Part shown: positions 2,072 through 34,094 of the stretch, one piece after another
Layout: each line of letters opens with the position of its first letter
Numbering within the stretch: the first letter of the stretch is position 1
Virus record (IMG/VR): IMGVR_UViG_3300038436_000256
Span: 1-40,979 of that record
Length of the DNA: 40,979 bases
Reading direction: 5' to 3' (one strand)
Source of the DNA: a virus
Lineage: Duplodnaviria > Caudoviricetes
Notes under the pieces: model-generated
What the model was told of the DNA's origin: nothing
The model's database searches: none
What the model saw: the letters and a program-made list of their open reading frames with translations, nothing else
Program-made: the position numbers and the translations under genes

Positions 2072-2907
2072 ATACTCGAATCTGGGTAGATGAAAAGTTC
2101 CGCACGCTCAACGAGAAAGAGCAGATGTTTTTCCTCTACCTCTTAACCTCACCACATTCAACAGCATGGGGGGCATATATCATTGACGACCTGTACATTC
2201 AGGCCGATTTAGGTTTTTCCCCGGCCATCATAAAATCATGCTGGCAGACACTTAAAAAAACCGGGCTCGTCATCAGGTGCGACCAGACACGACTTGTCGC
2301 TTTTCAAAACTGGTTTCGCTACAACCTCCCGGCCAACGAAAGGACAAGGGCTGCTTGCGTGAGAGGAATAATTTCACTACCTAAAAGCAAGGCATTACAA
2401 GAATTTATATCAAAGTCGGAGTGGGTTAGCGAACAGTTAGCTAACTCGAACATAACACTATCCGAACTGGTAGGTGATGAGCAAGGAGCACTGAACAGGA
2501 GCACTGAGCAAGGAGCACTGAACAGGAGCACTGAGCAGGATACCCCCTCCGGGGGTCTAGGGGGAAAAGTGAATGGAGAAGAAATTTCTTTCGTTTTTGA
2601 ACACTGGAAAAAGCGGCTGAACCATCCCCATGCGCAGCCGGGAGAAAAGCGCAAAAAGGCTATCAGAGAAAGGCTCAAGGAGGGATACACCCCTGAACAA
2701 CTATGCGAGGCTATCGACGGATGCGCAAAATCACCATGGCACCAAGGGGCAAACGATAAAGGGATGGTCTACGATTCAATAGAATTGATTTGCCGGGACG
2801 CTGAGCACGTTGACAGGTTTCGGAAGATTGCTCAGGACGGAGCGCCCCAACTATCGCCGGCAGGGATGAAAACGGCTATGGCCGCAAAGGAGTTTATCGA
2901 TGGTTGA
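2050..2907 (+). CDS. phage replication initiator (lambda O-like role)
   Basis: N-terminal YRKI...W.DEKF..L...FLYLLT replisome-organiser-like region, central iteron-like repeats, C-terminal helical domain (VFEHWK...RLKEGYT.EQL..AIDG); followed by loader-like gene. Confidence 0.75.
   Translation: MSRYRKIDTRIWVDEKFRTLNEKEQMFFLYLLTSPHSTAWGAYIIDDLYIQADLGFSPAIIKSCWQTLKKTGLVIRCDQTRLVAFQNWFRYNLPANERTRAACVRGIISLPKSKALQEFISKSEWVSEQLANSNITLSELVGDEQGALNRSTEQGALNRSTEQDTPSGGLGGKVNGEEISFVFEHWKKRLNHPHAQPGEKRKKAIRERLKEGYTPEQLCEAIDGCAKSPWHQGANDKGMVYDSIELICRDAEHVDRFRKIAQDGAPQLSPAGMKTAMAAKEFIDG
2478..2540 (+). repeat. 27-bp tandem repeat (2.3 copies; four AGGAGCACTGA cores), probable origin iterons
   Basis: TGAGCAAGGAGCACTGAACAGGAGCAC at 2478-2504 and 2505-2531 plus a partial copy, inside the initiator gene as in lambdoid ori. 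Confidence 0.7.
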
Positions 2908-3568
2908 ACCAGACAAAAAACGATTTGCGGAGATATTGACCGCAACCAGCGAGCTCTATGGTCGGACTATTTCCGTCCCGGCAATGCGGGTGTGGTTTGC
3001 CGCGCTTCTGCAATACGACATCAAGGATATCGTCGGTGCCGTACAGCGGCACATCACCTCACCAGATGGAAAATTCATGCCGGTCCCGGCGGACGTCATC
3101 CGGATTATTGAGGGGTCCGGGCAAGACGCCGCGCTGCTCGCCTGGACGAAGTTTACAGCGGCTCTGGAGCGAGTTGGCACATACCAGACGGTGGTGTTTG
3201 ATGATCCCATTATCCACACCGTTGTTGAGGATATGGGTGGGTGGGTGGAGTTCGGGGCCACTCCGATTGATGAGATGCGATTTCGCGGCATTGAATTTCA
3301 ACGACGATACCAGGCATACCGGCAGCGGATTGGGGAGCTACAGTATCCGGCGAAGCTGATTGGGATTACCGAGGCAGACAATCGGCAGAGGGGGTACATC
3401 GAGGATATTCCTGCGCCGCTCCTGATCGGAGACCACGAGAAAGCGCGGCAGGTTATGCTGGCTGGCTCGTCAGAGTCTAGGCTCAAGATATCGACCATCG
3501 GGGAGGCGGCTGTCAAGCTGTTGGCCGAAACAATTCCCCTGGAAGGTGAGAAGGAGAAGGCCGCATGA
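2900..3568 (+). CDS. replication-associated protein (helicase-loader-like, DUF6475-type C-terminus)
   Basis: Follows the initiator; FMPVPADVI and VVFDDPIIH..V..MGGW motifs. Confidence 0.6.
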   Translation: MVEPDKKRFAEILTATSELYGRTISVPAMRVWFAALLQYDIKDIVGAVQRHITSPDGKFMPVPADVIRIIEGSGQDAALLAWTKFTAALERVGTYQTVVFDDPIIHTVVEDMGGWVEFGATPIDEMRFRGIEFQRRYQAYRQRIGELQYPAKLIGITEADNRQRGYIEDIPAPLLIGDHEKARQVMLAGSSESRLKISTIGEAAVKLLAETIPLEGEKEKAA

Positions 3569-3771
3569 CCATCCCTCACGAACATGCCGAGGTCCGCCGC
3601 CGAGCCAGGGAGCAGAAGCGGAAAGACCTGTTCGCACTGATCACAAAACACCTGGATAGGGCCAAGGTTGACGGCACAGCCCCTGATATTTTGGTATCGG
3701 TTAAAGTGTCGCGGGATGGGGGAATTAAAGAGGTTGAGGTGAGGAGTATTGTGCGGGACGCGATCTTATAA
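3565..3771 (+). CDS. hypothetical protein
   Basis: ATGA overlap, AAGGAG RBS. Confidence 0.55.
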   Translation: MTIPHEHAEVRRRAREQKRKDLFALITKHLDRAKVDGTAPDILVSVKVSRDGGIKEVEVRSIVRDAIL

Positions 3772-3779
3772 TTTTTATT

Positions 3780-3808
3780 TTGACAAATTATTGATTCCGT
3801 CCGATAAT
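3780..3808 (+). promoter_or_regulatory. sigma70-type promoter upstream of the packaging/head operon
   Basis: TTGACA(3780-85)-N17-GATAAT(3803-08) with AT-rich upstream tract. Confidence 0.7.
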
Positions 3809-3824
3809 TAAGCAGACAAGTATA

Positions 3825-3855
3825 GTCGCCCCAAAAGCGGGGCGCGGATTGAAGT
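3825..3855 (+). CRISPR. solitary type I-C-like CRISPR repeat unit (not an array)
   Basis: GTCGCCCCAAAAGCGGGGCGCGGATTGAAGT: GTCGC start, CGCCCC/GGGGCG stem, GGATTGAA tail as in I-C repeats; only one copy seen. Confidence 0.6.
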
Positions 3856-3859
3856 AAAA

Positions 3860-3894
3860 CGGTTTCTGAAGCCGACCCCGAAAGGGATTGCGGC
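3860..3894 (+). promoter_or_regulatory. conserved leader RNA motif, copy A
   Basis: CGGTTTCTGAA then GCCG-AC-CCC-GAAA-GGG-ATTG-CGGC; same architecture at 34158-34190. Confidence 0.6.
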
Positions 3895-3898
3895 ATAC

Positions 3899-3955
3899 AG
3901 CCCGGTTATCTCCCAGCAATTTCAGCTGAGGGGGTGGCCGGGCTTTCGTCGTTTT
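3899..3955 (+). terminator. long hairpin / probable intrinsic terminator in the leader
   Basis: AGCCCGGTTATCTCCCAGC (3899-3917) pairs with GCTGAGGGGGTGGCCGGGCT (3925-3944), including G-U pairs; followed by TTCGTCGTTTT. Confidence 0.6.
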
Positions 3956-3966
3956 AGGGGTTTAGG

Positions 3967-4584
3967 TTGGCCGGTAAGCGCAAAGAAATTGACTGGGAAA
4001 AAGGCGACAAGCTGATCCGTCTAGGCCAGTTGTCTGCTGCAGAGATCGGCAGGCAACTGGGCTGCCCGACCAGTACCGTTACCCGGCGCATCAAAACGAA
4101 AGGGATCACAAGGGACAAGTCCGAAGAGGTTAAGACAAGGACGCGGGCCGCGCTCATCTCGAAAAATCTGCCTCAGCAACGCAACGCAACGCAACGCGAA
4201 ATTGCGGAGGTCGAAGAGCAGGACATTGACGAGGCCGTGAACACAAACGTTGCGCTGGTTCTGTCCCACCGCAACGACATTCAAAAACTCGCAACAGTGG
4301 AACAAAAAATTCTTGCTGAGTTGGGAGATGAAGACTCCCCGCCCACGAAACTTTACCTCGCAAACTATAAGGGGCAAGTGATTGGAAAAGAGGTTGGGTT
4401 GACGGTCACGGAAAAGTCCGCAGCATTGAGTAATTTGGCAAGCGTACAGCACAGGCGAATACAGCTTGAGCGCCAAGCGTTTGGGCTTGACGGTGAAGAG
4501 GGTGGCGATGCGGATAAACAGGAAATCAACATCACCAACAATGTTATTGAGCGCCGCATCGAGCCGAAAGAGGTTGCATCATGA
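3967..4584 (+). CDS. terS: terminase small subunit
   Basis: N-terminal HTH (LSAAEIGRQLGCPTSTVTRRIK), C-terminal RIQLERQAFGLD; overlaps terL; TTG start. Confidence 0.75.
   Translation: MAGKRKEIDWEKGDKLIRLGQLSAAEIGRQLGCPTSTVTRRIKTKGITRDKSEEVKTRTRAALISKNLPQQRNATQREIAEVEEQDIDEAVNTNVALVLSHRNDIQKLATVEQKILAELGDEDSPPTKLYLANYKGQVIGKEVGLTVTEKSAALSNLASVQHRRIQLERQAFGLDGEEGGDADKQEINITNNVIERRIEPKEVAS
4176..4197 (+). repeat. (GCAAC)4 pentanucleotide simple repeat
   Basis: gcaacgcaacgcaacgcaacgc inside terS. Confidence 0.8.
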
Positions 4585-10313: not shown

Positions 10314-11181
10314 ATGGGACAGGTATGGGGAACAAATACGCTGGGCGGATATGCGTACAGCGATCAACTGAGCAAGGTGTTGCGCACCGCACTGCAGCCG
10401 ATGATCCGGTTTCGCCAGTTTTGCGATGCCGACGATGCGAGTTCAGAAGGCCTGCATGCGGGCAGCGCCTACAACTGGAACGTCTATTCAGACGTTGGAA
10501 CCCAGGGCGGCGTGCTGACCGAAAACGTGCCGATCCCGGAAACGAATTTCACGATCAGCCAGGCGTCCCTGATGATGGTAGAGTTGGGGAACTCTGTTCC
10601 GTTCACCGGACTGCTGGATGATATGTCCGCGCAGCCCATCGAGCAGATCATCCAGAAGACCCTGAAAAACGACGCCAACAAGGCGCTGGAAACTCAGGCT
10701 CACGCGCAGTTTGACGCCACCCTCCTGGTTGTTTCGGCGGCCAGCGGCACCTCGACCACAGAGATTACCGTGGAAGAAGACGGCGCGATCACCGCCACCA
10801 ACAACGTGGCCCTTAACGACGACCATATCAAAAAAATCTCCGACCAGATGAAGGAGCGCAATATCCCGGCCTATGACGGCAGCAACTACTGCGCCGTTGG
10901 CCGTCCGGCGACATTCCGGGCATTCAAGGACGCGATTGAGGCGGTTCACTCCTACGTGGACCGCGGGTTCAGCGCGATTCTTGAAGGCGAAGTCGGCCGG
11001 CATTACGAGGGAATCCGTTTCTTCGAGCAGACCGCCATTGCCTCCGAGTCCTGGAGCAACGCCAAGTCGGACGCAGTTTACTTTTTCGGCGAGGACACGG
11101 TCATGGAGGCAATCGCCATCCCCGAGGAGATCCGGGGCAAGCTGCCGACCGATTACGGCCGCAGCAAGGGCTTTGCTTGGT
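10314..11181 (+). CDS. major capsid protein, exon 1
   Basis: AAGGAG RBS; capsid-like sequence ending DYGRSKGFAW; unspliced frame stops at 11195. Confidence 0.85.
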
Positions 11182-11290
11182 TAAACGCAGCATAATAGCC
11201 AAGGGTAAACTTCGTGAATTGCTGGAAACCCCTTAGAGACATGAAAGCTACAACGCAACTGGAAACGGTAAACGTGAATGCTGGAAAATT

Positions 11291-11902
11291 TCATGTATCG
11301 GGTGTGCGGTACTTTGGTTGTTTAGAGGTGAAGAAGTAATGTTCCCACTTGTAACGGTAGCAGCCAACAGGCGGATGGCCGATCCAATTCAGGAACGCAG
11401 GTATGCTGTTTTTGGATACGGTTATTTTCCCGTCTCGTGCGGCTCTACTTTTGAAGCCGATTTTCCTGAGTTGTTCAGAAAGAAACTCGCGGCTTGTGGG
11501 ATCGAAAGAGTGGGCGCAAAGACAGATTTGTCTCAGGTATCCCTTGTCGGTGTCAAAACCGCCGTCTCCACAGTACCAAAGATTGACGGTGCGTGGGCTA
11601 AGGGTAATATCCTTGGGCAAAACCTTTTTGCCAAATGGATACCAACGGGTGAAGAAATCACAAAGGTTTGGGGATACATGGCTAAAAGTTTGGTAGGTAT
11701 AGCCAGTCCCATACCCATTAGGTTTTGTGTGGGTAGGCCCAAATTGCAATCCAAATTCAGTAAGTACTTTCTGAATCCAAGCATTAAATTCTATGTGTTT
11801 GCAATTGTGACCAAACCGGGGGAAGCTTGTTATGCCGAGATGCTTCCCCCTGTGTTGAAGGCTGCTGTCACCAAGAAGCAGTCCGTCCATGGTGTCTTTC
11901 AT
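11291..11902 (-). CDS. LAGLIDADG homing endonuclease (two-motif), antisense within the intron
   Basis: MDGLLLGDSSL and LWYCGDGGF motifs, WYPFGKKVLP; GGAGAG RBS 5 nt before ATG 11902. Confidence 0.88.
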   Translation of the reverse strand: MKDTMDGLLLGDSSLQHRGKHLGITSFPRFGHNCKHIEFNAWIQKVLTEFGLQFGPTHTKPNGYGTGYTYQTFSHVSPNLCDFFTRWYPFGKKVLPKDITLSPRTVNLWYCGDGGFDTDKGYLRQICLCAHSFDPTSREFLSEQLRKIGFKSRAARDGKITVSKNSIPAFLNWIGHPPVGCYRYKWEHYFFTSKQPKYRTPDT

Positions 11903-11932
11903 TCTCACTCTCCAATGTATTCGCTTTTACCA

Positions 11933-11961
11933 ATACTACACCGAATAACAACCAAAGTCAA
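11933..11961 (-). promoter_or_regulatory. sigma70-type promoter for the LAGLIDADG gene
   Basis: minus strand TTGACT(11961-56)-N17-TAGTAT(11938-33). Confidence 0.65.
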
Positions 11962-12119
11962 CACCCAGATGGGCAATCAGCAGCCAAGCACCGTACAGGT
12001 GAAGGTTCAACGGCCAGGGGACATACCCCGTAGGGTCCAAGCGGACCCGAAGCGCGAGGCGGCGCAGAGAATCGCGTCGAAGATATGGTCTACACTGCAC
12101 GGAAACGCGCAGCGGATTC

Positions 12120-12148
12120 TTGACGATTCAGGGATTAAATGGTATTAC
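12120..12148 (+). promoter_or_regulatory. candidate promoter for the intron HNH gene
   Basis: TTGACG(12120-25)-N17-TATTAC with TG extension; -10 imperfect. Confidence 0.45.
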
Positions 12149-12178
12149 CAATGCAGCAACATAGCTATGGAGGATACC

Positions 12179-12673
12179 ATGAAAATTACGCTTGAAGTCG
12201 TTGAGAGGTTTCACGAAAAATGGGTTGTCAACAAAGAGAATGGTTGCTGGGAATGGACTGCCTCATTAGCCGGTAAAGGTTACGGGCAGATGAAGGTCCC
12301 GGGAACAAGACGGCAGGAATACGCCCACAGGATATCGTACATGATTCACTGCGGGAATATACCTGGCGACATGCAGGTATGCCATACATGCGACAACCCT
12401 AAATGTGTAAAGCCAAGCCACCTTTTTCTCGGAACGAGTGGTGACAACCACTTGGACATGAAGGAGAAGGATCGGCACCTTAATGGCGAGAGAAACAAGA
12501 AGGCCAAGCTCACGGAAGAACAGGTCCGGCGCATCCACGAGTTGCATTCGCAAGGGATGTCGCAAGGGAAAATTGGCGAGGCTTTCGGCGTTTCTCAAGG
12601 GCAGGTGTTCAGGATACTACACGGTATCCAGTGGCAACACATTTATCGTGAAATCAAATCGGGCAGGTTGTAG
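12179..12673 (+). CDS. HNH homing endonuclease with C-terminal HTH, in the 3' part of the intron
   Basis: CWEW...GYG...AHRISY...VCHTCDNPKCVKPSHLFLGT..DN; HTH SQGKIGEAFGVSQGQV; GGAGGA RBS at 12169-74. Confidence 0.9.
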   Translation: MKITLEVVERFHEKWVVNKENGCWEWTASLAGKGYGQMKVPGTRRQEYAHRISYMIHCGNIPGDMQVCHTCDNPKCVKPSHLFLGTSGDNHLDMKEKDRHLNGERNKKAKLTEEQVRRIHELHSQGMSQGKIGEAFGVSQGQVFRILHGIQWQHIYREIKSGRL

Positions 12674-12694
12674 CGTAACCTGTTGAATATACGG

Positions 12695-12777
12695 ATTATT
12701 TGGGCGGCTTCGGGATCGTGCATAACGAGACCGGCGCGGACGACAACCGCATTGTGAAGTGGGCCAGCGCCGCCTAG
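12695..12777 (+). CDS. major capsid protein, exon 2
   Basis: T|AT TAT TTG GGC GGC TTC gives ...AWYYLGGFGIVHNETGADDNRIVKWASAA*; spliced CDS is 951 nt (316 aa). Confidence 0.85.
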
Positions 12778-23993: not shown

Positions 23994-26900
23994 ATGGGCA
24001 TCCTTGACGACGAGCTGGGGATTGATCCTTTCGACGGCGGATCATCCGGTCCGGATAGTGAGCCGCTGTTTGCCCTGGACCGGGAGCTGGCCGGGTACGA
24101 CTTTGAGGATGGCGCGGAAGAGGATTCCGGCGACTTCCTTCGGGGCGTCTCGACCACCTTCAAGCAGGTGCCTCAACTCCTGCGCGGGGTCGAGGCAGGG
24201 ATAGGCGCGGCCGGTGAAAAGCTGTTCGGCGAGGGCGGAGACTGGACGAACATCAAGAAGGCTGGGGTTGCCGGGTATCTGGACTGGAGCGAACGTATCG
24301 CCAAGGACGCCAAGCTCTCGGACAATCTTGATTACTCCTGGGGCAGGGCGAAAGATGGCGACTTGGGGGCGCTGATTGATTGGCTGCAGTACGGGGCCGG
24401 GTACACCGTTGGCCAGGGCGCACAGATTCTCGCCACGGGCGGGGCCGGTTCGCTCATCGGGAAGACCGCCCTCAAGGGTGGGGTTGAAAACCTTGCCGCC
24501 GGGATGGTGAAAAAGGAAATGGCCACACTGGCCGGGTCAAAACTTGCCGGCGGGCTCGCGGCGGAAGAGCTTGCAAAGCTGGCTGTCAGTAATGTTGCCT
24601 CGAAGATCGGGCAGACAACGACCATGGCCCTTACCGCCACCGGGATGGAAGGCGGCGAGATATTTGGTGGCCTGGTCTCCGGCACTGAGAAGGAAGGCCG
24701 GACACCGACCGGGAGTGAACTGGCACTGGCCTTCGGGTCCACTCTGGCTGCCGGCGGACTGGAGTTTGTCGGGGATAAGCTGGGCCTGGACCTGATGCTT
24801 GGCAAGTCCAAGGTATTCAGCCCTGCAAAGACAATGACTGGAGTTGCCGGACGAGCTGGCCGGGCCGGACTGGGTATGGCTGCGGCCGCTCCGGTAGAGG
24901 CCGGGACGGAATATGCGCAGACCATGCTGGAGGAATTCGGCCAGGGCCGCGATCCGTGGAGCGAAGAATCAAGACGGCAGGCGTTCAACGCGGCAGGGCT
25001 CGGCGGGCTCGGCGGGGCGATGATCGGCGGTGGTGGCGGGCTCCTTTCCCCTGCAGATATCAAGACTGCCCTGGACGATTCCGGGCGGTTGTTGGATGAG
25101 GCTGACGCCCTGGACGAAACGGACATGCCCACGGTTGACGATGTGTTTGCCGCGCATGACAAGCGGACGACAGCGGCCGGGATCATGGACATCATCGAAA
25201 GGCCGACACCAGAGATTGATACCGTTGGCGAGGTGCTGGGCGACGACCTGCCGATTGACCAGCCGGGGATGAGCCGGGTTGAGCAGGTTGATCCCATTTC
25301 CCCGCTTGTCAGACAGTGGGATGAATTCATTCAGAGACGGGAACAGAAGAAGGCTGAAGCCGTTGACCTGATGCCGGAAGAGTTGAGGCCGGTGATCGGG
25401 ACCATCGAGCGGCAATTGTCCGAGGGCGAAACCGGAATCCGGTTCCAGAAAGAGGACGGATCTTGGGACGGGGTGAAGTCCACAAACCCAGACTGGATCA
25501 AAAAGCCAGCCCTGGAGAAGTACGACCAGGTGAACGGGACAAGTCTCGCCAAACGCCTGAACAAGTTGAGTCTCAAAGCCACGATCAGCAAGGTCCGCCA
25601 GGGCAAGGAGCTTTCAATAGGGCAGGAAGAAATCTGGGAATACGTTCAGGATGTGGCCAGGACCACGGCTGACCCGGAAGTAGCGGCGGCCAGCGAATAC
25701 ACCAGGATCGAGAAGGAAGAGGGCATTGAACTTGAGGCCCCGCACAAGGTGGTTGTCGCCGACCTGAACGACGGGGATAAGGTTGTCGTTCACAAGAACG
25801 GAATCCCTGATGTGGTGACGGTGAAGGGTCGCGATGATGACGGGAATGTTGTCCTTGAGGATGGCAATGTTTTCCGGCTGGATGACTTCGACAAGCTGGA
25901 GATTTCCGGGATCAAGCGGGCACAGGAGGTTCAGCCCAAGGCAACCGAGGTCATCGAGGACCCGAAATCGATAGCGAGCGGCCAGGAAGTAAACACCTCT
26001 CCGTCAGAGTCGATGAAGGAGGCGGGAAACTACAAGAAGGCCCACGTTGCAGTTGACGGGCTCGATATTTCCATTGAAAACCCTGTTGGGTCCGTCAGGT
26101 CTGGAAAGGATAAAAACGGCAGGGAGTGGAGCCAGGAGATCAAGGCCGATTACGGGTACATCAAGGGGACCGTAGGCCACGACAAGGACCATGTTGATAT
26201 TTTCGTCAAGCCCGGATACCAGGGCGGGGCCAAGACCGTTCATGTCGTTAATCAGGTTGATCCGGAGACGGGGAAATTTGACGAGCACAAGGTTGTCCTC
26301 GGGGCCGGGTCGGCTGGTGAAGCTATGGAAACTTACCTGGCAAACTACGAGCCAGGCTGGGCCGGCGGAAAGAATGTCGTCGAGATGTCCACTGATCAGT
26401 TCAAAGAGTGGGCGAAGTCCGGCCAGGCGAAAAGGGGAGAGCTTCCTGGAAACGAACAAATTACCCCTTCTATTTCTCAGCCTAAAACGACAAACGAACC
26501 GACAAAACAGCCGGTCAATTTGCCGCAAGAATCCCCTGCAGCTCCCCCCATTGAGCAGCAGGGCGCGGGGCAGCCGGAAACTCCCTCTCCGGTTGTCCCT
26601 GCTTCTAAAGAACCGTGGCAGATGTCAAAAGATGAGTGGGCATCTGCCATTGAAAGCGGAAAGCCTGGAGCCTTTGCGACATCACGGCAAGAGGATTGGG
26701 GTAGCTTACGAGGACAGGGGAAGCGCAGTGGTAGTATGGTTAAGGGCTCGATGCGTGACTCTACCTTGCAGGGGAAAAGAAATTACACCGATATCGTTGG
26801 TAAATTGCCGAAAGAAGAACGTGCCGATGTTTATGCAACTCTTGGCGACGAGAATCATGTCCTGACACAATATGCCAAGGCCAGAAGCGGCGGATTGAAC

Positions 26901-29900
26901 CACGAAGCCGCGATTCTTCACGCAATATCTGTTACTGACAAAGATGTTGACGCGCACAAAAGAGTGGTCGAATTGGCGATTTCAGCGGGCAAGCCAGTAC
27001 CGCAAGCCATTTTAGATTCCTACCCCGACCTCCAGCGCAGAGAACCAGCGGAGAGCAAGCCGGAACCAGCAACCACACAGGGGGCCAGCAATGGGCAAGA
27101 AGGGCAAGGGAAGGGAGAGCTGCTGAAAGAAGAGAAGCCGTCTACCAAGGCGGCTCCAGCCTTCCCCATTTCCAAGCACGGCAGCGCGGCAATCCTCGTA
27201 TCCGGCAACCCTGACGATATCAAGGCCAAGCTGGCAGGTGCCGGTATAAAGGCCAAGGGCCGGGTAAAGAAAGGGCGCGGTATGCTGTTCCCGGTTGGGA
27301 TGGAAGGGGAGATCAGGGGGGCGCTTGAAAAGGAGGCTGATAAGACCGCCGGCACCCTCACCAACGAAGACGGAACGCCATTGGTTGTTTACCGTGGCGA
27401 CTCTCTTTCTCCTGGTTCATTAAAGCCTTCGACCGGCGGAGATTTAGGGACCGGGATATACCTGACGGAAGACAGGTCCACGGCTGAGTATTTCACCGAT
27501 GGAACCGACGAGAGCCATACCAAGGCATACAATATCAAGATGGGGAATCCATTCGGCCTCATGTCAAAAGCCCTTCCGAAAAGTAAAGGGTGGAAGGCGA
27601 TGATGAGGACTGTCCCGGAGGGATTGAATCGGGACAACCTTAGAAAGTGGGCAAAGAACGAACTTGACATCAAAAATACTTACGGGTTTCTTGCCAGGAG
27701 CTTCGGATTAACCCCGGACACCTTCAACGCCTTTCTTGAAAAGCATGGTTTCGATGGGATAATCAGCCAGGGCACAAGGGGCGTTTCTGAATACAGCCGG
27801 GAGTATGTTGTATTCTCTCCAGATCAGGTTGTGGCGGTACAGGATGATTCTGTTCAACGCGATACGGATGGAGTGGATACCGTGGAGCCAGCAGAAGTTG
27901 ATGCGGCGGCAACCACATTTGACAATGCCGCCGAAGGGGATATAATAAGTGAAGGAGGAATAGAATATGAAATATCAGAAATCAGATCCCCTGCCAGTGG
28001 TAAGCACCGGGCCGGTGGAAGTGCCATACCGGGTCAACTCGCCTTGTTTGAAAACAAGGAAATGCCGAAAGGCAAGCGGCAAAAATTCATTGAATCGTAC
28101 CCGGCTAAGATAGGAACATTCTATTCTGATTTTAAGAAAATAGAGAACGCCGAACAGGCCGCGCAGCTTGTTTCCCCTATAAGCTTTCGTTCGCAAGAGA
28201 CGTTTGCCGTTATTGCCCTTGACGCCGAAAAGCGCCCCATCTCAGTTCTTCAGCATTCAGTAGGGACAAATATAAGAAGCCAAGTCGCTCCAGGTTTGGC
28301 CGTTGGGTCAATCCTTAATACGAAAGGCGTTGATTCTGTTTGGCTTGTTCATAATCACCCGTCCGGGAATGCCACAAAAAGCGATGATGATACCAGGCTG
28401 ACCAGGCACTTTGAGAATGGGACAAGGGGGCTTGGAGTTACGGTAGTTGGCCATGTAATTGTTACTCCAAACGGGGAAGCTTCAGAGCTTGACAATCTTG
28501 GTAATTTCATCAGGACGTTCAGCATCACGGAGAAGTCGGGGAAGAATAATCCGGTTAAGGTAACCGACAGGCGGCTGAAGGGGGATAAGCACGAATACCT
28601 TGGAGGTGAGGAAATATCCTCGTCTCAGGAGGCAAGGGAGACGCTCGATAAATATTCACAAGGAAGGCCAGGGATATTGCTCTTGAACCCGCAGAACCGG
28701 CCTATCAGGTTCTTCAGTCTTCCCGTCTCAAAAATGGAACTGCTACGGGAGGACGGGAAACGCGGCGTAGCTGCTGAATTGTACAGATATTTTGATAAGC
28801 GCAATGCAGTTGCAGCGGCAATAGTCTCATTTGGAAGGAACGGGAGATACCCCCGCGCTGAACAGAATATCAGCAATTTTCTCCGTCAAGCCGGCGTGAC
28901 ATTGCTTGATATTATCGCAAACGGGAATTCTCTGGCAGATTTAGGGGAGATCAGAAATTTAGCCTCTCGCGGAGACTACGAAGGGAACCCATTTTACTCC
29001 AAATCCACCGTCGGCACCACGGACACCACCCCTGAACAGGTAACGGCAGAGCTGCGCGATTTCTTGGGGCAGGGCGAGCGTAATCTTTCCCGGGCCGGGA
29101 AGCTGGAGATTGTCAGGACCGGAATGGGATTGCCGGAGGCGGTGAGGCGCGGAGCTTTGTTCATGACGGCTTGGCACGTGATCCCGTCAACCTTTTTTGC
29201 TAACCGGGTAGGGGATTCCCCGCAAGTCAAAAGCCTTCCTGATGCTGTGATAACCGATGCCAAGCTGTTGGCTAATTTTGTTAATACTCATGCCTTCATC
29301 AAGAAGGGCCTTGACGGCTTCGATGTCCCAACGCAAAAAGCGCAACTCGGAAGAGTGCTTAGGCTTATCGAGAACGACGAGATTAGAAAGTCTGTTGTCG
29401 AGTCTATCCCTGTTGACATGATGGACATGCTCGCCGGTAAGGAGCTTACGCCCGAGGTGTTGCTCCATGATGTGTCGGTGTTCAGGGACTTGCTTTCCGT
29501 CGATGGTGATAATTTTGTAGCCCTTCCGGTTGATGTGGCCAGTAGACTTGCCAATATCGTAGCAATTGCGGGTGCAAAAAATTCTGTGCTGAGTCGATTT
29601 TATGTTGGAACTACATCGCTCAAAGGTGCGCCCGCAGACGGGGCAAATACAGGAGCGCCTTCTCTTTCTGCACTCGATAGAGCAGTGGAAGACCTTGACC
29701 CTAGCGGCCCGTTCATTGGCGATGCGCTTAACGGCTCCGCACTTCGAGCAGGTACCTTCAACCATGCTGACACCTCATTGTTTGATGATAATAACATTAT
29801 ACCAAAAAATGAGATTATTGCAACTAGTAAAATTTTCTCTGATGAAGATGTCCAGATAACCGCCCTCTATTCCAAGGACGGGTCAATTGTAGGCGCATAT

Positions 29901-32900
29901 TACCAAGGGAAAATCTACCTGGTAGCCGACCGCATGAAGCCCGGAGATGCCAAGTACGTCATGATCCACGAGGGCGCCCACGCTCTCCTTAAAGAAGACC
30001 CGCTTTTCTCCGACCAGAAGGGCCGTATCCTGGGCCGTTTCGTCTCGCTCAAGGGCAAGTCCGCCGCGGTTGATGCAGCATACTCAAGGGCAGAGAAGGC
30101 AAAGGGAAGGGTTGGCACACTGAATGAAGAGGCCCTGGCCTACTTCCTCCAGGAAAAGGCCAACCACAAGCACTCTATCTTCCGGCGGATCGTCGCGGCT
30201 ATCAAGTCGGCACTGGTCCGGCTGGGCGTGCCGGTGGACAAGCTGAACTTCCAGGAGGCTGATTTCGTCGCGCTCTTTGTTGGAGGCGTGAAAAGGTTTG
30301 CCCGCAATGTCCAGGTTGAGCAAGGGGAGTTTGCCGGGGAGGCTGAGGCGTCTTATTCCAAAGACGGCAAGCCCGTCCAGCGCGTCACCCCCGAAATGTT
30401 ACAATCCCCCGAGTTCAAGAAATGGCAGGGCGATTCAGCAATAAAGGATGTGGTCTGGCACGGGACCGACTCAAAGGGCTTCCTGCAAGACGGCTCTTGG
30501 ACCTTCGATTCGACCAAGGGCAAGAGCAAGCACCATTCGCCCCTCGCTGGCCTGGGGAACTTCTTCGCCCTGGACCGTACCGAGGCGGCAGGCTACGGCA
30601 GCAGAGGCGTGGTCAGGCCGTTTTATGTGTCGGTAGAAAATCCACTGCGGCTCAACTCCTACGATTCACGGCTGAATAACCTGAACACCAGGGAAGAGGC
30701 GGCAGCCTTCGCAAAACGGATGCAGGCGCGTGGACATGACGGGATAGTGCTGGAGGACCAGGGGCATGTTATCGTTTTCGACCCGGGCAATATCAAGTCG
30801 GCTGAGTTTAATACCGGGGAGTTCGACCGGGCGAATAAGGACGTGCGGTATTCCAGGCAGCAGTTTGAGGAAGATTTCGATGAGGACACGCGGGACGCGG
30901 CGAAGATCGTCAAGAACCGCACCCCGAAGAACGATATCACCGCGCTGGGGCAGATATTTTCTACCCCTGATTATCTGCTCAATGCAGACCCGGCAGGAAA
31001 GCGGCTCTTTGAGACGCAACCGGAGCGGCGGGACCGGCGGTTTGAACTGGAGAACGACATCTTTAACAAGACCGGCGAGAATACCGGGTTTGTCCACGAA
31101 ATGACCAAGCTGCGGAAAGAAGACCCGGCAGAGTACGAAAAGGCCAAGGACTATCTGCTCAAGACCGACAAGACCGGCGAGGCGTTCAGAATAAAGCAGT
31201 GGTCCGGGTACATTGTCAGGGGCCTTGACGGCAACGAGATCGACCGTACCGAGAAGTCGGAAGATGCCGATACCATCGCCAGGAAACAGTTTGAGACCGA
31301 GGCGGCCAGGAAGTACATCAAGCCCCTTCCCGTAGGTCTGGACCGGGTAAAGCGGTATCAGGTCGGCGACAGGATCGTTGACAACTACGATAAGGCCAGA
31401 GTGCTTTCCCGCGACATGGCCAGGGCCGACAAGACCTACATCGCCAGCTACAAAACCGAAAAGATCGAGCAGTGGGAACTGCACGACCCGAAGAAAAAGC
31501 TGGTCGGGACATTCAAGACGGAGCGTGAAGCGGTTGATGCCCTGGAACAGGCTGAACACGATTATCTATCAGGGAAGGGCTTCTCCTTCAAGGCTACCGG
31601 CGGGGTGCTGGCTTTCCGGCGGATGACCAACAGGGCTTTTGATCACCAGATAGCCGACCTGAAACAGATCATCGCCGAGTGCGAGAAGCTGAAGATCGAC
31701 CCGCCGACCGTGACCGTTGTCGATGAGTCGCGTCGCTGGGGGATATTCGGGCACGGGAAACGGGTAGGCGAATTCTCCACCAGGAAAGAGGCGGAAAACG
31801 CGGTCTACAGCCTTAAGAAAACCGATTTCGCGCAGTACAAGGGGTTGGAGGTCAGAAGGCAGCAGGACGCCGAAATAAAGAAGGAAACGACCCTGCAAGA
31901 CATCATGGCAATGATGGGTGAGCTGCGGGGCTCGTACTTCCCGAGGCAGAGGGAGGAGGGCCGGGTGATCCTGCGGGCGACGAAGGGCGAGAGCCGGATC
32001 ATGGAGAAGTTCGACTTCTACGCCATGGACCAGGAATATATCGACCCGGAGACAGGTGTGGTATCTGCCGCGAAAGTCAGGCAGGCCAGCAGCTTCATTA
32101 AAAATCTGTTCAACAGGATATCCGGACGCATACCGTTTGTCAAAACCCTGGAGAAGCGGGCGCGGCAGTTGGAGCGTGACGGCTACAAGATCAGCATCGA
32201 ACGTGATTCCTCCCTCCCGGAAACGGTGTTCGACCCGGCCGGCCTGATTGCCTCGATCAGCTCTTTGATGAATGAAGCGGTTGATCAGGTGAAGGATCAG
32301 GAACTCAGGGGCGCCGCCGCTCAGGAAGCGAATAAGATCATCCTCAACGGGCTGGCCGAACAGTTCAAGAAACGCGGGTTCCTTTCAGCCAGGATAGCCA
32401 GATCTGATGAATATTGGGAAGGGTTCGAGACTGACCCGCTCAAGGCTGGGACGCAGTACGCCAAAGGGCTGGCGGCCGGTATTGCCAAGCGCGAGACATC
32501 GCAAAAAATGGTGCTGATCATCACCGGGCGCGATGAGTCCTGGGATGACTGGAAAGCTGACAAGGAAGATCCGCAGTGGGAAGATTATCAGGAATTTGTC
32601 AGGAACAGGGCCATTGACCCGAAGCAGCAGGGCACTCTCTACAAGGAAGCGATCAGTTTCACCCGTGAGATGCTGAGAAACGACGAACAGGGCGACAGGA
32701 TCATGGGCACCTTGCGCGGGCTGGCCACGTTCAAGTTCTTGGGGTTCCGGGTAAGCTCGGCGGCGATCAACGCCACCAACATGGTCCAGGCTGTTCCGGC
32801 CACCATTTCCGCGCAGACCGGAGGGAGCATAGCGGCCGCCCTGAATGAGATCGGCAGGGCCGCCAGCATTTACGGCAAGTACCGACTCGGCAAGCTGACT

Positions 32901-34094
32901 GGAGCTGATCAAGCCATTATGGCCGACATTCACCAAAGGGGTTGGGTAGAGGCGCAGTTCAACCACGAAGCGGCCGACGCCCTGCGGAATAAGGTTGGTA
33001 ATCACATGGACACCTTCCTCGGCTGGTCAATGCTGATGTTCGGCGCGGTTGAAAAGGTGAACCGGGCGACCACCATCTTTGCCGCCTACAAGCAGTTCAA
33101 GAAACAGTTTCCGGAAATGGACCACGAAACGGCTATGGCCAAGGCCAAGCATGTTTCCGACCGGGCGCATGGCATTTACGACAAGAGCACGGCCCCGGCA
33201 TGGTCCAGGGGCGCGAACAACCCGGTAAAACTGCTCTACACCTTCGTCAAGTTCGGGCACAACTACTTGCTGAACACGGCGGAGATGATCGGCAAGGACC
33301 AATGGAAGCAGGCCGGGTACATGATCCTTTCCCCGGCGATCCTCGGCGGCATGGGTGCAAGTATTGCCACAAAAGCCCTGTTCCTGGCGCTCGGGCTTGG
33401 CAGTGACAGCGATGATCCGGAAGAGGAATTCTACGCCTGGGTGGAAGAGAAGTTCGGCAGCGATACGCTCCCCCGGCACGGCCTGGCCGGGTTGCTGGGC
33501 GTGAATATCAAGGGCAGTCTCCAGGTCAACAATCCATTCCCGACAAAGATTACCGAATTGTTCGGGGCACCCGGGGCGGTTATCTTCGACGCGGCCAAGG
33601 GGATGAAGCATCTGGGCCGGGGCGAGTTTTACAAGGCCGCTGAGGATATCATGCCGGCAGCGGTCGGCAATGTCTCCAAAGCGATCAGGGAACACCGGGA
33701 GGGCGTCACCACCGACAGTTCCACGCCGGTCTATTACGGTATGGAGCCTCTGAAGGGCACGGCGACCGAGGCGGCCATTCGCTTCCTGTCATTCAGCCCG
33801 TCCAGGATCAGCGCCGTTCGGGAAAAACAGTGGAGCGAGAAGAAAGTTGCCGGCAAGTTCGCTGATCGGAAAAGCGAAATCTATTCGCGGTTCAAACGGT
33901 TCTATCTGCGCCCGCCGGAAGATCAGGACAGCGGCGATTATGCGGAGCTGCTGAAGATGGTCGATGCCTTCAATGAAGATGTTTTTGCATCCGGCAGATA
34001 TGATATCAGCCCAATCACCGGGAAGAGCTTGACCTCTGCGATAAAGCAGTCGATGCGCCCTGGCAGGAGGGAGAGGATGCGAGAGTCGCAATAA
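23994..34094 (+). CDS. giant polyvalent virion/ejection protein (3366 aa)
   Basis: Gly/Ala-rich N-terminus; InPase-like domain (GNYKK.H...IENP.GS.RSG...YGYI...D.D.VD, ~26020-26420); ART-PolyVal-like (YRG...GTGIYLT...EYVVF, ~27370-27830); JAB/RadC (HNHPSG...S.DD, ~28140-28470); HExxH peptidase (IHEGAH, ~29965); second ART-like (WHGT...GNFFA...GHDGI...VFDP, ~30450-30850); helical C-terminus. Confidence 0.85.
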   Translation: MGILDDELGIDPFDGGSSGPDSEPLFALDRELAGYDFEDGAEEDSGDFLRGVSTTFKQVPQLLRGVEAGIGAAGEKLFGEGGDWTNIKKAGVAGYLDWSERIAKDAKLSDNLDYSWGRAKDGDLGALIDWLQYGAGYTVGQGAQILATGGAGSLIGKTALKGGVENLAAGMVKKEMATLAGSKLAGGLAAEELAKLAVSNVASKIGQTTTMALTATGMEGGEIFGGLVSGTEKEGRTPTGSELALAFGSTLAAGGLEFVGDKLGLDLMLGKSKVFSPAKTMTGVAGRAGRAGLGMAAAAPVEAGTEYAQTMLEEFGQGRDPWSEESRRQAFNAAGLGGLGGAMIGGGGGLLSPADIKTALDDSGRLLDEADALDETDMPTVDDVFAAHDKRTTAAGIMDIIERPTPEIDTVGEVLGDDLPIDQPGMSRVEQVDPISPLVRQWDEFIQRREQKKAEAVDLMPEELRPVIGTIERQLSEGETGIRFQKEDGSWDGVKSTNPDWIKKPALEKYDQVNGTSLAKRLNKLSLKATISKVRQGKELSIGQEEIWEYVQDVARTTADPEVAAASEYTRIEKEEGIELEAPHKVVVADLNDGDKVVVHKNGIPDVVTVKGRDDDGNVVLEDGNVFRLDDFDKLEISGIKRAQEVQPKATEVIEDPKSIASGQEVNTSPSESMKEAGNYKKAHVAVDGLDISIENPVGSVRSGKDKNGREWSQEIKADYGYIKGTVGHDKDHVDIFVKPGYQGGAKTVHVVNQVDPETGKFDEHKVVLGAGSAGEAMETYLANYEPGWAGGKNVVEMSTDQFKEWAKSGQAKRGELPGNEQITPSISQPKTTNEPTKQPVNLPQESPAAPPIEQQGAGQPETPSPVVPASKEPWQMSKDEWASAIESGKPGAFATSRQEDWGSLRGQGKRSGSMVKGSMRDSTLQGKRNYTDIVGKLPKEERADVYATLGDENHVLTQYAKARSGGLNHEAAILHAISVTDKDVDAHKRVVELAISAGKPVPQAILDSYPDLQRREPAESKPEPATTQGASNGQEGQGKGELLKEEKPSTKAAPAFPISKHGSAAILVSGNPDDIKAKLAGAGIKAKGRVKKGRGMLFPVGMEGEIRGALEKEADKTAGTLTNEDGTPLVVYRGDSLSPGSLKPSTGGDLGTGIYLTEDRSTAEYFTDGTDESHTKAYNIKMGNPFGLMSKALPKSKGWKAMMRTVPEGLNRDNLRKWAKNELDIKNTYGFLARSFGLTPDTFNAFLEKHGFDGIISQGTRGVSEYSREYVVFSPDQVVAVQDDSVQRDTDGVDTVEPAEVDAAATTFDNAAEGDIISEGGIEYEISEIRSPASGKHRAGGSAIPGQLALFENKEMPKGKRQKFIESYPAKIGTFYSDFKKIENAEQAAQLVSPISFRSQETFAVIALDAEKRPISVLQHSVGTNIRSQVAPGLAVGSILNTKGVDSVWLVHNHPSGNATKSDDDTRLTRHFENGTRGLGVTVVGHVIVTPNGEASELDNLGNFIRTFSITEKSGKNNPVKVTDRRLKGDKHEYLGGEEISSSQEARETLDKYSQGRPGILLLNPQNRPIRFFSLPVSKMELLREDGKRGVAAELYRYFDKRNAVAAAIVSFGRNGRYPRAEQNISNFLRQAGVTLLDIIANGNSLADLGEIRNLASRGDYEGNPFYSKSTVGTTDTTPEQVTAELRDFLGQGERNLSRAGKLEIVRTGMGLPEAVRRGALFMTAWHVIPSTFFANRVGDSPQVKSLPDAVITDAKLLANFVNTHAFIKKGLDGFDVPTQKAQLGRVLRLIENDEIRKSVVESIPVDMMDMLAGKELTPEVLLHDVSVFRDLLSVDGDNFVALPVDVASRLANIVAIAGAKNSVLSRFYVGTTSLKGAPADGANTGAPSLSALDRAVEDLDPSGPFIGDALNGSALRAGTFNHADTSLFDDNNIIPKNEIIATSKIFSDEDVQITALYSKDGSIVGAYYQGKIYLVADRMKPGDAKYVMIHEGAHALLKEDPLFSDQKGRILGRFVSLKGKSAAVDAAYSRAEKAKGRVGTLNEEALAYFLQEKANHKHSIFRRIVAAIKSALVRLGVPVDKLNFQEADFVALFVGGVKRFARNVQVEQGEFAGEAEASYSKDGKPVQRVTPEMLQSPEFKKWQGDSAIKDVVWHGTDSKGFLQDGSWTFDSTKGKSKHHSPLAGLGNFFALDRTEAAGYGSRGVVRPFYVSVENPLRLNSYDSRLNNLNTREEAAAFAKRMQARGHDGIVLEDQGHVIVFDPGNIKSAEFNTGEFDRANKDVRYSRQQFEEDFDEDTRDAAKIVKNRTPKNDITALGQIFSTPDYLLNADPAGKRLFETQPERRDRRFELENDIFNKTGENTGFVHEMTKLRKEDPAEYEKAKDYLLKTDKTGEAFRIKQWSGYIVRGLDGNEIDRTEKSEDADTIARKQFETEAARKYIKPLPVGLDRVKRYQVGDRIVDNYDKARVLSRDMARADKTYIASYKTEKIEQWELHDPKKKLVGTFKTEREAVDALEQAEHDYLSGKGFSFKATGGVLAFRRMTNRAFDHQIADLKQIIAECEKLKIDPPTVTVVDESRRWGIFGHGKRVGEFSTRKEAENAVYSLKKTDFAQYKGLEVRRQQDAEIKKETTLQDIMAMMGELRGSYFPRQREEGRVILRATKGESRIMEKFDFYAMDQEYIDPETGVVSAAKVRQASSFIKNLFNRISGRIPFVKTLEKRARQLERDGYKISIERDSSLPETVFDPAGLIASISSLMNEAVDQVKDQELRGAAAQEANKIILNGLAEQFKKRGFLSARIARSDEYWEGFETDPLKAGTQYAKGLAAGIAKRETSQKMVLIITGRDESWDDWKADKEDPQWEDYQEFVRNRAIDPKQQGTLYKEAISFTREMLRNDEQGDRIMGTLRGLATFKFLGFRVSSAAINATNMVQAVPATISAQTGGSIAAALNEIGRAASIYGKYRLGKLTGADQAIMADIHQRGWVEAQFNHEAADALRNKVGNHMDTFLGWSMLMFGAVEKVNRATTIFAAYKQFKKQFPEMDHETAMAKAKHVSDRAHGIYDKSTAPAWSRGANNPVKLLYTFVKFGHNYLLNTAEMIGKDQWKQAGYMILSPAILGGMGASIATKALFLALGLGSDSDDPEEEFYAWVEEKFGSDTLPRHGLAGLLGVNIKGSLQVNNPFPTKITELFGAPGAVIFDAAKGMKHLGRGEFYKAAEDIMPAAVGNVSKAIREHREGVTTDSSTPVYYGMEPLKGTATEAAIRFLSFSPSRISAVREKQWSEKKVAGKFADRKSEIYSRFKRFYLRPPEDQDSGDYAELLKMVDAFNEDVFASGRYDISPITGKSLTSAIKQSMRPGRRERMRESQ
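29187..29765 (-). CDS. HNH homing endonuclease nested antisense inside the giant gene
   Basis: Two CxxC...CxxxC Zn modules, GY...EHRHIME..LGR.L...EHVHHVNRDRLDNRLSNL core, C-terminal HTH; GAGGTG RBS 5 nt before ATG. Confidence 0.9.
   Translation of the reverse strand: MVEGTCSKCGAVKRIANERAARVKVFHCSIECRKRRRSCICPVCGRTFERCSSNIKSTQHRIFCTRNCYDIGKSTGHINRKGYKIITIDGKQVPEHRHIMEQHLGRKLLTGEHVHHVNRDRLDNRLSNLVVLDKPKHSSELRFLRWDIEAVKALLDEGMSINKISQQLGIGYHSIRKAFDLRGIPYPVSKKG
29796..29823 (-). promoter_or_regulatory. sigma70 extended -10 promoter for the nested HNH gene
   Basis: minus strand TTGCAA(29823-18)-N16-TATAAT(29801-796), preceded by TGG (TGn). Confidence 0.75.

Follow-up and report, generated by a model that had tools for sequence, protein, structure and literature searches.

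Several phage and mitochondrial introns resemble parts of the locus analysed here. The DNA polymerase intron of the cultured Bacillus phage phiNIT1 (AP013029; orf197b and orf188), which splices in vitro and in vivo, lies in a region described as two successive introns (PMC11878797). A motif scan of that region (L075, positions 2790–4400, about 100460–102070 of AP013029) found one P/Q/S set, and on these motifs the two introns seem to be one ribozyme with two ORFs. As in the window, by which the whole 40,979-base stretch of viral DNA under analysis is meant, the phiNIT1 intron holds an HNH gene and, at the same ribozyme position, a LAGLIDADG gene (phrog_11023, 42% identity) with an inverted repeat that includes a KQPK arm; unlike in the window, the LAGLIDADG cassette is in sense orientation, the HNH enzyme is of the NUMOD4/I-HmuI type and lies between R and S, and the host gene encodes DNA polymerase. 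Mycobacteriophage LittleE also has a group I intron in its capsid gene with a bottom-strand LAGLIDADG-like ORF (gp14), and the LittleE intron is spliced in vivo; it differs in holding one ORF, and no second target is proposed in the available part of the report (PMC3706429). LittleE was not among the ten phage records matched by the window LAGLIDADG protein. Antisense endonuclease genes are known in nuclear introns as well (PMC9548176). An earlier reading of the window made from the letters of the DNA, referred to here as the sequence-only reading, had considered a capsid host gene, a LAGLIDADG enzyme, antisense orientation and double cargo an unusual combination; part by part this was overstated, as LittleE joins a capsid gene to an antisense LAGLIDADG-like ORF and phiNIT1 holds PHROG families P59 and P11023 in one intron.

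Two further systems concern how such genes move. In introns nad1-i4 and cox1-i7 of Podospora anserina (Sellem, 1996, 1997; cited in PMC4964425) an optional ORF with a short downstream fragment enters an ORF-bearing intron; however, the Podospora case, as far as the available source describes it, is mitochondrial, allelic and within one intron, whereas here a cassette family occupies unrelated phage and bacterial intron cores in both orientations. Members of the window's HNH family stand alone next to the capsid gene in some loci and lie within the intron at that site in others, as collaborative homing predicts, but the models of that process, in the parts available, end with an enzyme of the exon junction, whereas the window LAGLIDADG appears to be aimed at the intron (PMC2988022, PMC3984707). 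A search of titles and abstracts, with most subscription journals outside its coverage, returned no nuclease family that homes to group I cores across host genes and none at one core position across unrelated introns. The part that looks new is this division of labour, with the HNH enzyme tied to the capsid site and the LAGLIDADG enzyme to the ribozyme core.

The terminase, portal, capsid and tail genes of the window share one direction, and the capsid gene is interrupted as follows.

10314–11181, plus strand: exon 1 of the major capsid protein (N4-gp56-like family, distant; PHROG major head protein, E = 1.9e-11; TIGR04387, E = 1.8e-7, below cut-off; 3283 homologues)
11176–11203, plus strand: P1 (exon CUUGGU with internal guide GCCAAG, U·G splice pair) and the P10 5' strand (11192–11196)
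11182–12694, plus strand: predicted group I intron of 1513 nt with an IA-type layout (P7.1 and P7.2, no P2, extended P5), from the RF00028 match, its helices and a splice that restores the homologous C-terminus
11210–11296, plus strand: P3 5' strand, P element, P5 5' strand and P5a extension (arms 11239–46/11289–96), aligned to cassette-free same-site introns
11237–12673, plus strand: stop-free frame of 478 codons, read from the sequence, that spans the antisense gene and the ribozyme core and continues into the HNH gene
11291–11902, minus strand: gene for an I-SceI-like monomeric LAGLIDADG endonuclease (ATG 11902; longest frame from GTG 11908; Pfam LAGLIDADG_2, E = 2.5e-17; phrog_11023)
11296–11302, plus strand: displaced, drifted original P5 3' strand by alignment (TATCGGG; GATTGGG in cassette-free relatives)
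11300–11322, plus strand: left arm of the cassette stem (GGGTGT and a 12-nt arm that encodes KQPK on the minus strand)
11303–11973, no strand assigned: LAGLIDADG cassette of 671 nt within the ribozyme, closing with a cassette-borne copy of the P5 3' strand (11966–11973); same position in L075, L198, L199, L243, L252 and L512
11908–11961, minus strand: cassette promoter TTGACT-17-TAGTAT (11961–11933, from the promoter scan) and Shine–Dalgarno (SD) sequence GGAGAG (11913–11908)
11947–11966, plus strand: right arm of the cassette stem
11975–12112, plus strand: Q, P6/P6a, R, P7, P7.1, P7.2, P3 3' strand, P8, S and P9 (86% identical to L044, an endonuclease-free same-site intron)
12114–12180, plus strand: P9.1, a weak promoter-like site and a predicted hairpin over the HNH SD (12169–74) and start codon (−30.1 kcal/mol, z = −3.3, for 12090–12200)
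12179–12673, plus strand: HNH endonuclease gene (HNH_3, E = 1.7e-10; phrog_59) with a C-terminal HTH, inserted in P9
12662–12694, plus strand: P9.2 and terminal G, read from the sequence and homologous to L044
12695–12777, plus strand: exon 2 of the major capsid protein (Y-YLGGFG...WASAA*), in the reading frame after splicing

Gene callers end the window capsid protein at 293 aa (P0001), which is the truncation by automated annotation that had been anticipated, and they truncate relatives likewise, whereas the homologues are mostly 313–318 aa. When U-ended 5' sites were combined with G-ended 3' sites and joins of 310–322 aa were kept, eight candidates were obtained, among which the previously proposed join of 11181 to 12695 is the only one that gives ...GFAWYYLGGFGIVHNETGADDNRIVKWASAA, a protein of 316 aa with the conserved end AWYYLGGFG (WYYLGGFG...WASAA). 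The predicted spliced junction reads TGGT joined to ATTATTTG. The sequence-only reading had asked whether capsid homologues end in the manner of AWLNAA; 116 of the 119 other listed homologues continue with W-Y/F, two (P0043 and P0102) end after WLT, as the unspliced window does, and one (P0034) terminates before that point. These comparisons confirm that a predicted group I intron at 11182–12694 splits the major capsid gene.

One public contig matches the entire stretch with zero differences and is possibly not independent of the window DNA. The two runs that contain this DNA are groundwater metagenomes of one study. In the contigs of three DNA runs of one study, no spliced joint, flipped form or cassette-free allele of the window's locus was found. 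A second contig in run X1 shares window positions 11248–11278 (P5a), followed by an empty GATTGG..AATC site, and from this 31-base match it was noted as a putative cassette-free sister intron in the same sample. The capsid family is itself an intron hot spot, in which several genes (L044, L018, L011, L106, L274, L278 and L286) are interrupted at two or three codons by group I introns, some of which contain an HNH gene or another ORF. Elsewhere in the window, positions 23994–34094 (plus strand) encode a 3366-aa protein with a DarB-like/endolysin-like segment at residues 611–831, and a PAPS-reductase-family protein and a metallo-β-lactamase-fold hydrolase (1–714 and 995–1771) lie next to replication genes.

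The Rfam model RF00028 matches 11150–12112 (E = 9.3e-8) with 38.1 bits and a 671-nt insert inside the model; this falls short of the gathering score of 50, and a search at that level finds nothing in the window, the probable reason being the interruption of the core by the insert. Same-site introns without the cassette reach 65–92 bits, above gathering. Helix reading placed every element that had been proposed from the sequence, namely P1 with its U·G pair, P10, P, Q, R, S and the terminal G. P1 is formed by 11176–81 and 11198–203 with the splice pair U11181·G11198, P10 by 11192–96 and 12695–99, P3 by 11210–16 and 12053–59, and P7 by 12010–16 and 12086–91; the terminal G is G12694. The P7 sequence, ACGGCCA/UGGUCU, departs from the usual one but keeps its pairing. 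Between P7 and P3 lie P7.1 and P7.2 (12017–29 and 12033–48), extra stems that mark subgroup IA (IA2/IA3). P4, P5a, P6/P6a, P8 and P9–P9.2 were placed by reading the sequence, and the P3-P4-P6-P7-P8 core is complete with P, Q, R, S and the G-binding G–C pair in P7. A twintron, with one intron nested in another, was rejected, as Rfam gives a single match and the core elements occur once. The two endonuclease ORFs lie as the sequence-only reading had placed them, the LAGLIDADG gene antisense between P and Q and the HNH gene in sense orientation after S, within P9. Introns at the same codon in related phages are ORF-free (L044 and L018) or hold HNH only (L060, L278, L279, L283 and L286), and the aligned loci thereby show that the window intron also exists with HNH alone or without an ORF.

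The HNH_3 match is above cut-off, and the active-site residues H, C, H and N are conserved (alignment A5). The middle Asn is replaced by Lys in the window enzyme and in 51 of 120 homologues; decay of the gene was rejected, as the substitution is a trait of the family. The SD and start codon are covered by a predicted hairpin, as they likewise are in T4 intron endonucleases (PMC2988022). A ribosome-binding site and a promoter had been proposed for each endonuclease gene; the promoter scan called that of the LAGLIDADG gene, whereas the HNH promoter-like site (TTGACG-17-TATTAC) was not called and is weaker than had been stated. A 22-nt inverted repeat inside the gene (12209–12230/12632–12653, 86% complementary) could loop out most of the HNH coding region.

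The best 14 of the 80 viral HNH loci kept (11 distinct; 46–71% identity) all adjoin the 3' end of a capsid gene of the window's family, and none of the remaining 66 stands next to such a gene. Of the 11 distinct loci, five lie in P9 of introns between AW and Y and a sixth in an intron placed four codons further along, whereas the remaining five stand alone immediately behind an intact capsid gene (L281, L287, L288, L289 and L291); the latter are likely to represent the pre-intron state of the window enzyme. By the classical measure of intron homing, under which an endonuclease family is tied to one exon junction or host site, the loci compared show the HNH family tied to the capsid 3' end, and we infer that the enzyme cuts the intronless capsid gene.

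The LAGLIDADG gene, the stop codon of which overlaps P5a, encodes two LAGLIDADG motifs whose catalytic residues D14 and D115 are invariant in 12 of 12 aligned rows and in register with the I-SceI motifs (HMM match, E = 1.3e-10). The predicted fold (pLDDT 91.5) matches I-SceI in Foldseek with E = 2e-9 and a TM score of 0.74. Although I-SceI and I-WcaI share the two motifs, the aspartate register and the fold (TM 0.72–0.74) with the window protein, the identity is about 20%. I-SceI and I-WcaI cut exon junctions of rRNA genes. In the promoter scan four sites were found, against 1.6 ± 1.2 in shuffles, and promoter-like sites in the sense cassettes L198 and L199 align in register with the window's cassette promoter.

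The cassette, 607–688 nt long across seven loci, stands at one ribozyme position in all seven loci read with their DNA, in the P5 3' strand before Q; nine relatives in the window clade (P0121–P0128 and P0130) lie outside this count. In each of the seven, the original P5 3' strand, as GATTGG or in drifted form, precedes the cassette, and a second copy belonging to the cassette closes it before AATC; in this alignment the cassette is thus seen to carry its own predicted copy of the P5 3' strand. In a protein search at 40% or more identity over at least 150 aa, from which one duplicate row was dropped, five of five distinct loci lie directly before Q, against one of 61 more distant matches; L512, found by a DNA pattern at the cassette position, is not independent. 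Besides the window capsid gene, the hosts are the phiNIT1 DNA polymerase gene, another DNA polymerase A site, a flagellin gene, a tail sheath gene, a virion structural gene and a decayed intron, and across these alignments the predicted ribozyme position is fixed while the host genes are unrelated. The flagellin case (L199:2716–3753) is a cassette-bearing group I intron in a bacterial gene on a metagenome contig; in the decayed intron (L198:1540–2460) the 5' core is eroded and no host gene is evident, while the reading frame of the endonuclease has stayed intact. A distant LAGLIDADG (30% identity; L206:1540–2430) lies between P and Q slightly upstream of the cassette site, in a gene with multiple introns.

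The six carrier exon junctions are 30% identical pairwise (15 pairs), so that the LAGLIDADG family, by the same classical measure, is tied to no single junction, whereas the cassette flanks are 72% identical, a figure partly built in, as any group I core is conserved there and the alignment was anchored on those motifs. Long inserts in the 86 parsed cores fall within L6 or L8; the one core with a long stretch from P to Q (L034) is probably the product of a parse across separate introns, and the P5/Q site is thus not a general landing place. The motif GATGG before Q was dropped as a cassette signature: it is not in the 86 parsed cores, yet 31 of 33 loci that carry it do not have the LAGLIDADG endonuclease. 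A direct protein scan of viral contigs gave no further cassettes, a scan of 401 genomes of one phylum gave only the already known cassette, and the family is rare (three viral contigs and one GTDB genome found).

The arms of the cassette stem pair at −26 kcal/mol, better than all 106 interior windows; such a closing stem is strong in four of the seven cassettes, including that of the window, and at background in three. An inverted copy of the KQPK codons forms one stem arm in the window, phiNIT1 and L512. The empty-site motif is not present anywhere in the window, where the left flank has drifted to TATCGGG and the cassette strand reads CAGATGG for CTGATGG; this drift may mean that mobility is decaying in the window.

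Five cassettes are in sense orientation and two, those of the window and L252, are antisense. Since the promoter is internal to the cassette and keeps register with promoter-like sites of the sense copies, the whole unit has been turned, and since both antisense copies fall in one clade (100/100; 100/99 in a second tree), one old flip is indicated rather than a switch. The flip perhaps went through the terminal repeats; when the segment between the 6-nt arms is flipped in silico, the result is a sense-type cassette that lines up in register with that of phiNIT1. A recent flip in the window phage was rejected in favour of the older event, as the clade shared with L252 is well supported.

Within the stop-free frame on the message strand, an ATG at 11339 overlaps a TAA and is preceded by an SD-like GAGGTG (11325–30). 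The LAGLIDADG gene has no TTA, CTA or TCA codons, although the composition of its third positions would lead one to expect 6.5 (P = 0.0003), whereas five relatives match their expectation; 15 of 141 host-gene windows of equal length likewise lack these codons. On selection to keep a frame open across the core the counts point both ways: N-terminal extensions through the core occur in about 17 of 120 HNH homologues, counted by eye, compared with 2 of 207 frame–core pairs in insert-free introns, and none of the five HNH introns with DNA has an open frame through the core.

The order of arrival is suggested by P0278, an HNH protein 90% identical to that of the window, the N-terminal read-through of which runs over the same core with the cassette site empty; the cassette thus appears to have come after HNH. 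In a tree of 65 ribozyme cores, the five cassette-bearing cores need four changes, each has a cassette-free core as its nearest neighbour, and the window core groups with cassette-free capsid-site introns (100/98). From the occupation of the same core spot in six host sites, the LAGLIDADG enzyme likely spreads by cutting introns, as a parasite of a parasite. We favour, with reasonable confidence, the reading in which homing of the intron to intronless capsid genes would be the work of the HNH enzyme and homing into intron cores that of the LAGLIDADG enzyme. The sequence-only reading had treated both enzymes as cargo of the intron, whereas the comparisons tie HNH alone to the capsid site and present the LAGLIDADG gene as a separately mobile cassette of the ribozyme cores of many unrelated introns.

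A single entry into one ancestral intron, after which the gene travelled with the intron lineage as a passenger or a maturase and not as a core-homing nuclease, would predict one fixed position; the GenBank name of the phiNIT1 protein, putative RNA maturase, points the same way, and one clade of cassette-bearing ribozymes is not formally rejected (AU test, p = 0.052, with the bootstrap unsettled). We nevertheless judge it unlikely, given the cassette-free nearest neighbour of every carrier core and the occurrence of the window intron with the same HNH and an empty site. The promoter and duplicate of the displaced strand carried by the cassette, and the aspartates invariant in 12 of 12, also weigh against it. 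Homing may instead be allelic only, into cassette-free copies of the cassette's own intron, with the jumps being rare accidents followed by retargeting. Double-strand-break repair requires flanking homology, and non-allelic introns offer this only in short core segments, which, together with the Podospora nad1-i4 and cox1-i7 precedent (cited in PMC4964425) and the rarity of the family, lends this alternative some weight. It is doubtful in view of the seven carriers, in six host sites and a decayed intron, that all use one position; such constancy would need a retained specificity for the shared core, which makes it a weaker form of the preferred explanation.

It is improbable that both enzymes cut the intronless capsid junction, or that the LAGLIDADG enzyme targets another gene of competing phages, with the cassette simply occupying an insert-tolerant loop. 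The cleavage site of an intron endonuclease usually lies no more than about 25 bp from where its intron inserts (PMC2988022), and an intron endonuclease is known to act in interference competition (PMC11620839), but the dissimilarity of the carrier exon junctions argues against the cutting of exons, and the concentration of long inserts in L6 or L8, with L034 as the sole and probably artefactual exception, against a tolerant loop.

On the preferred explanation of exon-homing by HNH and core-homing by the LAGLIDADG enzyme, the history of the locus may be outlined as follows. A free-standing HNH gene beside the capsid gene would have entered P9 and made the intron mobile, as in collaborative homing, and the LAGLIDADG cassette would have arrived afterwards. 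Its enzyme would cut cassette-free cores and copy the cassette in, splitting the target and replacing the displaced strand; because insertion splits the target, carriers would be immune, and because transcription would start from the internal promoter, orientation would be immaterial, with one old flip giving rise to the antisense clade. In the late capsid mRNA the terminal stem would fold the cassette out, P5 would be closed by the strand that the cassette supplies, and the intron would be spliced out. On co-infection, the composite element would convert intronless and cassette-free alleles alike. A bolder extension, which we put forward tentatively, is that the cassette is a hyperparasite that targets the universally conserved P5/Q segment, hops between unrelated phage and bacterial introns in either orientation, repairs the ribozyme with its own strand copy and could cut any intron-bearing co-infecting phage; here it would also keep the message strand stop-free for ribosomes through the insert and the core into HNH.

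How endonuclease genes come to reside in ribozyme introns, and what leads some introns to hold a pair, is a question with few testable cases; in this single intron the two proposed routes are seen together, each with a named, short and testable target. If the LAGLIDADG enzyme cuts cores, endonucleases would spread among introns whatever the host gene, and the phiNIT1 intron would be reinterpreted. The enzyme would then be a compact monomeric nuclease of about 200 aa, directed at a motif common to many phage introns.
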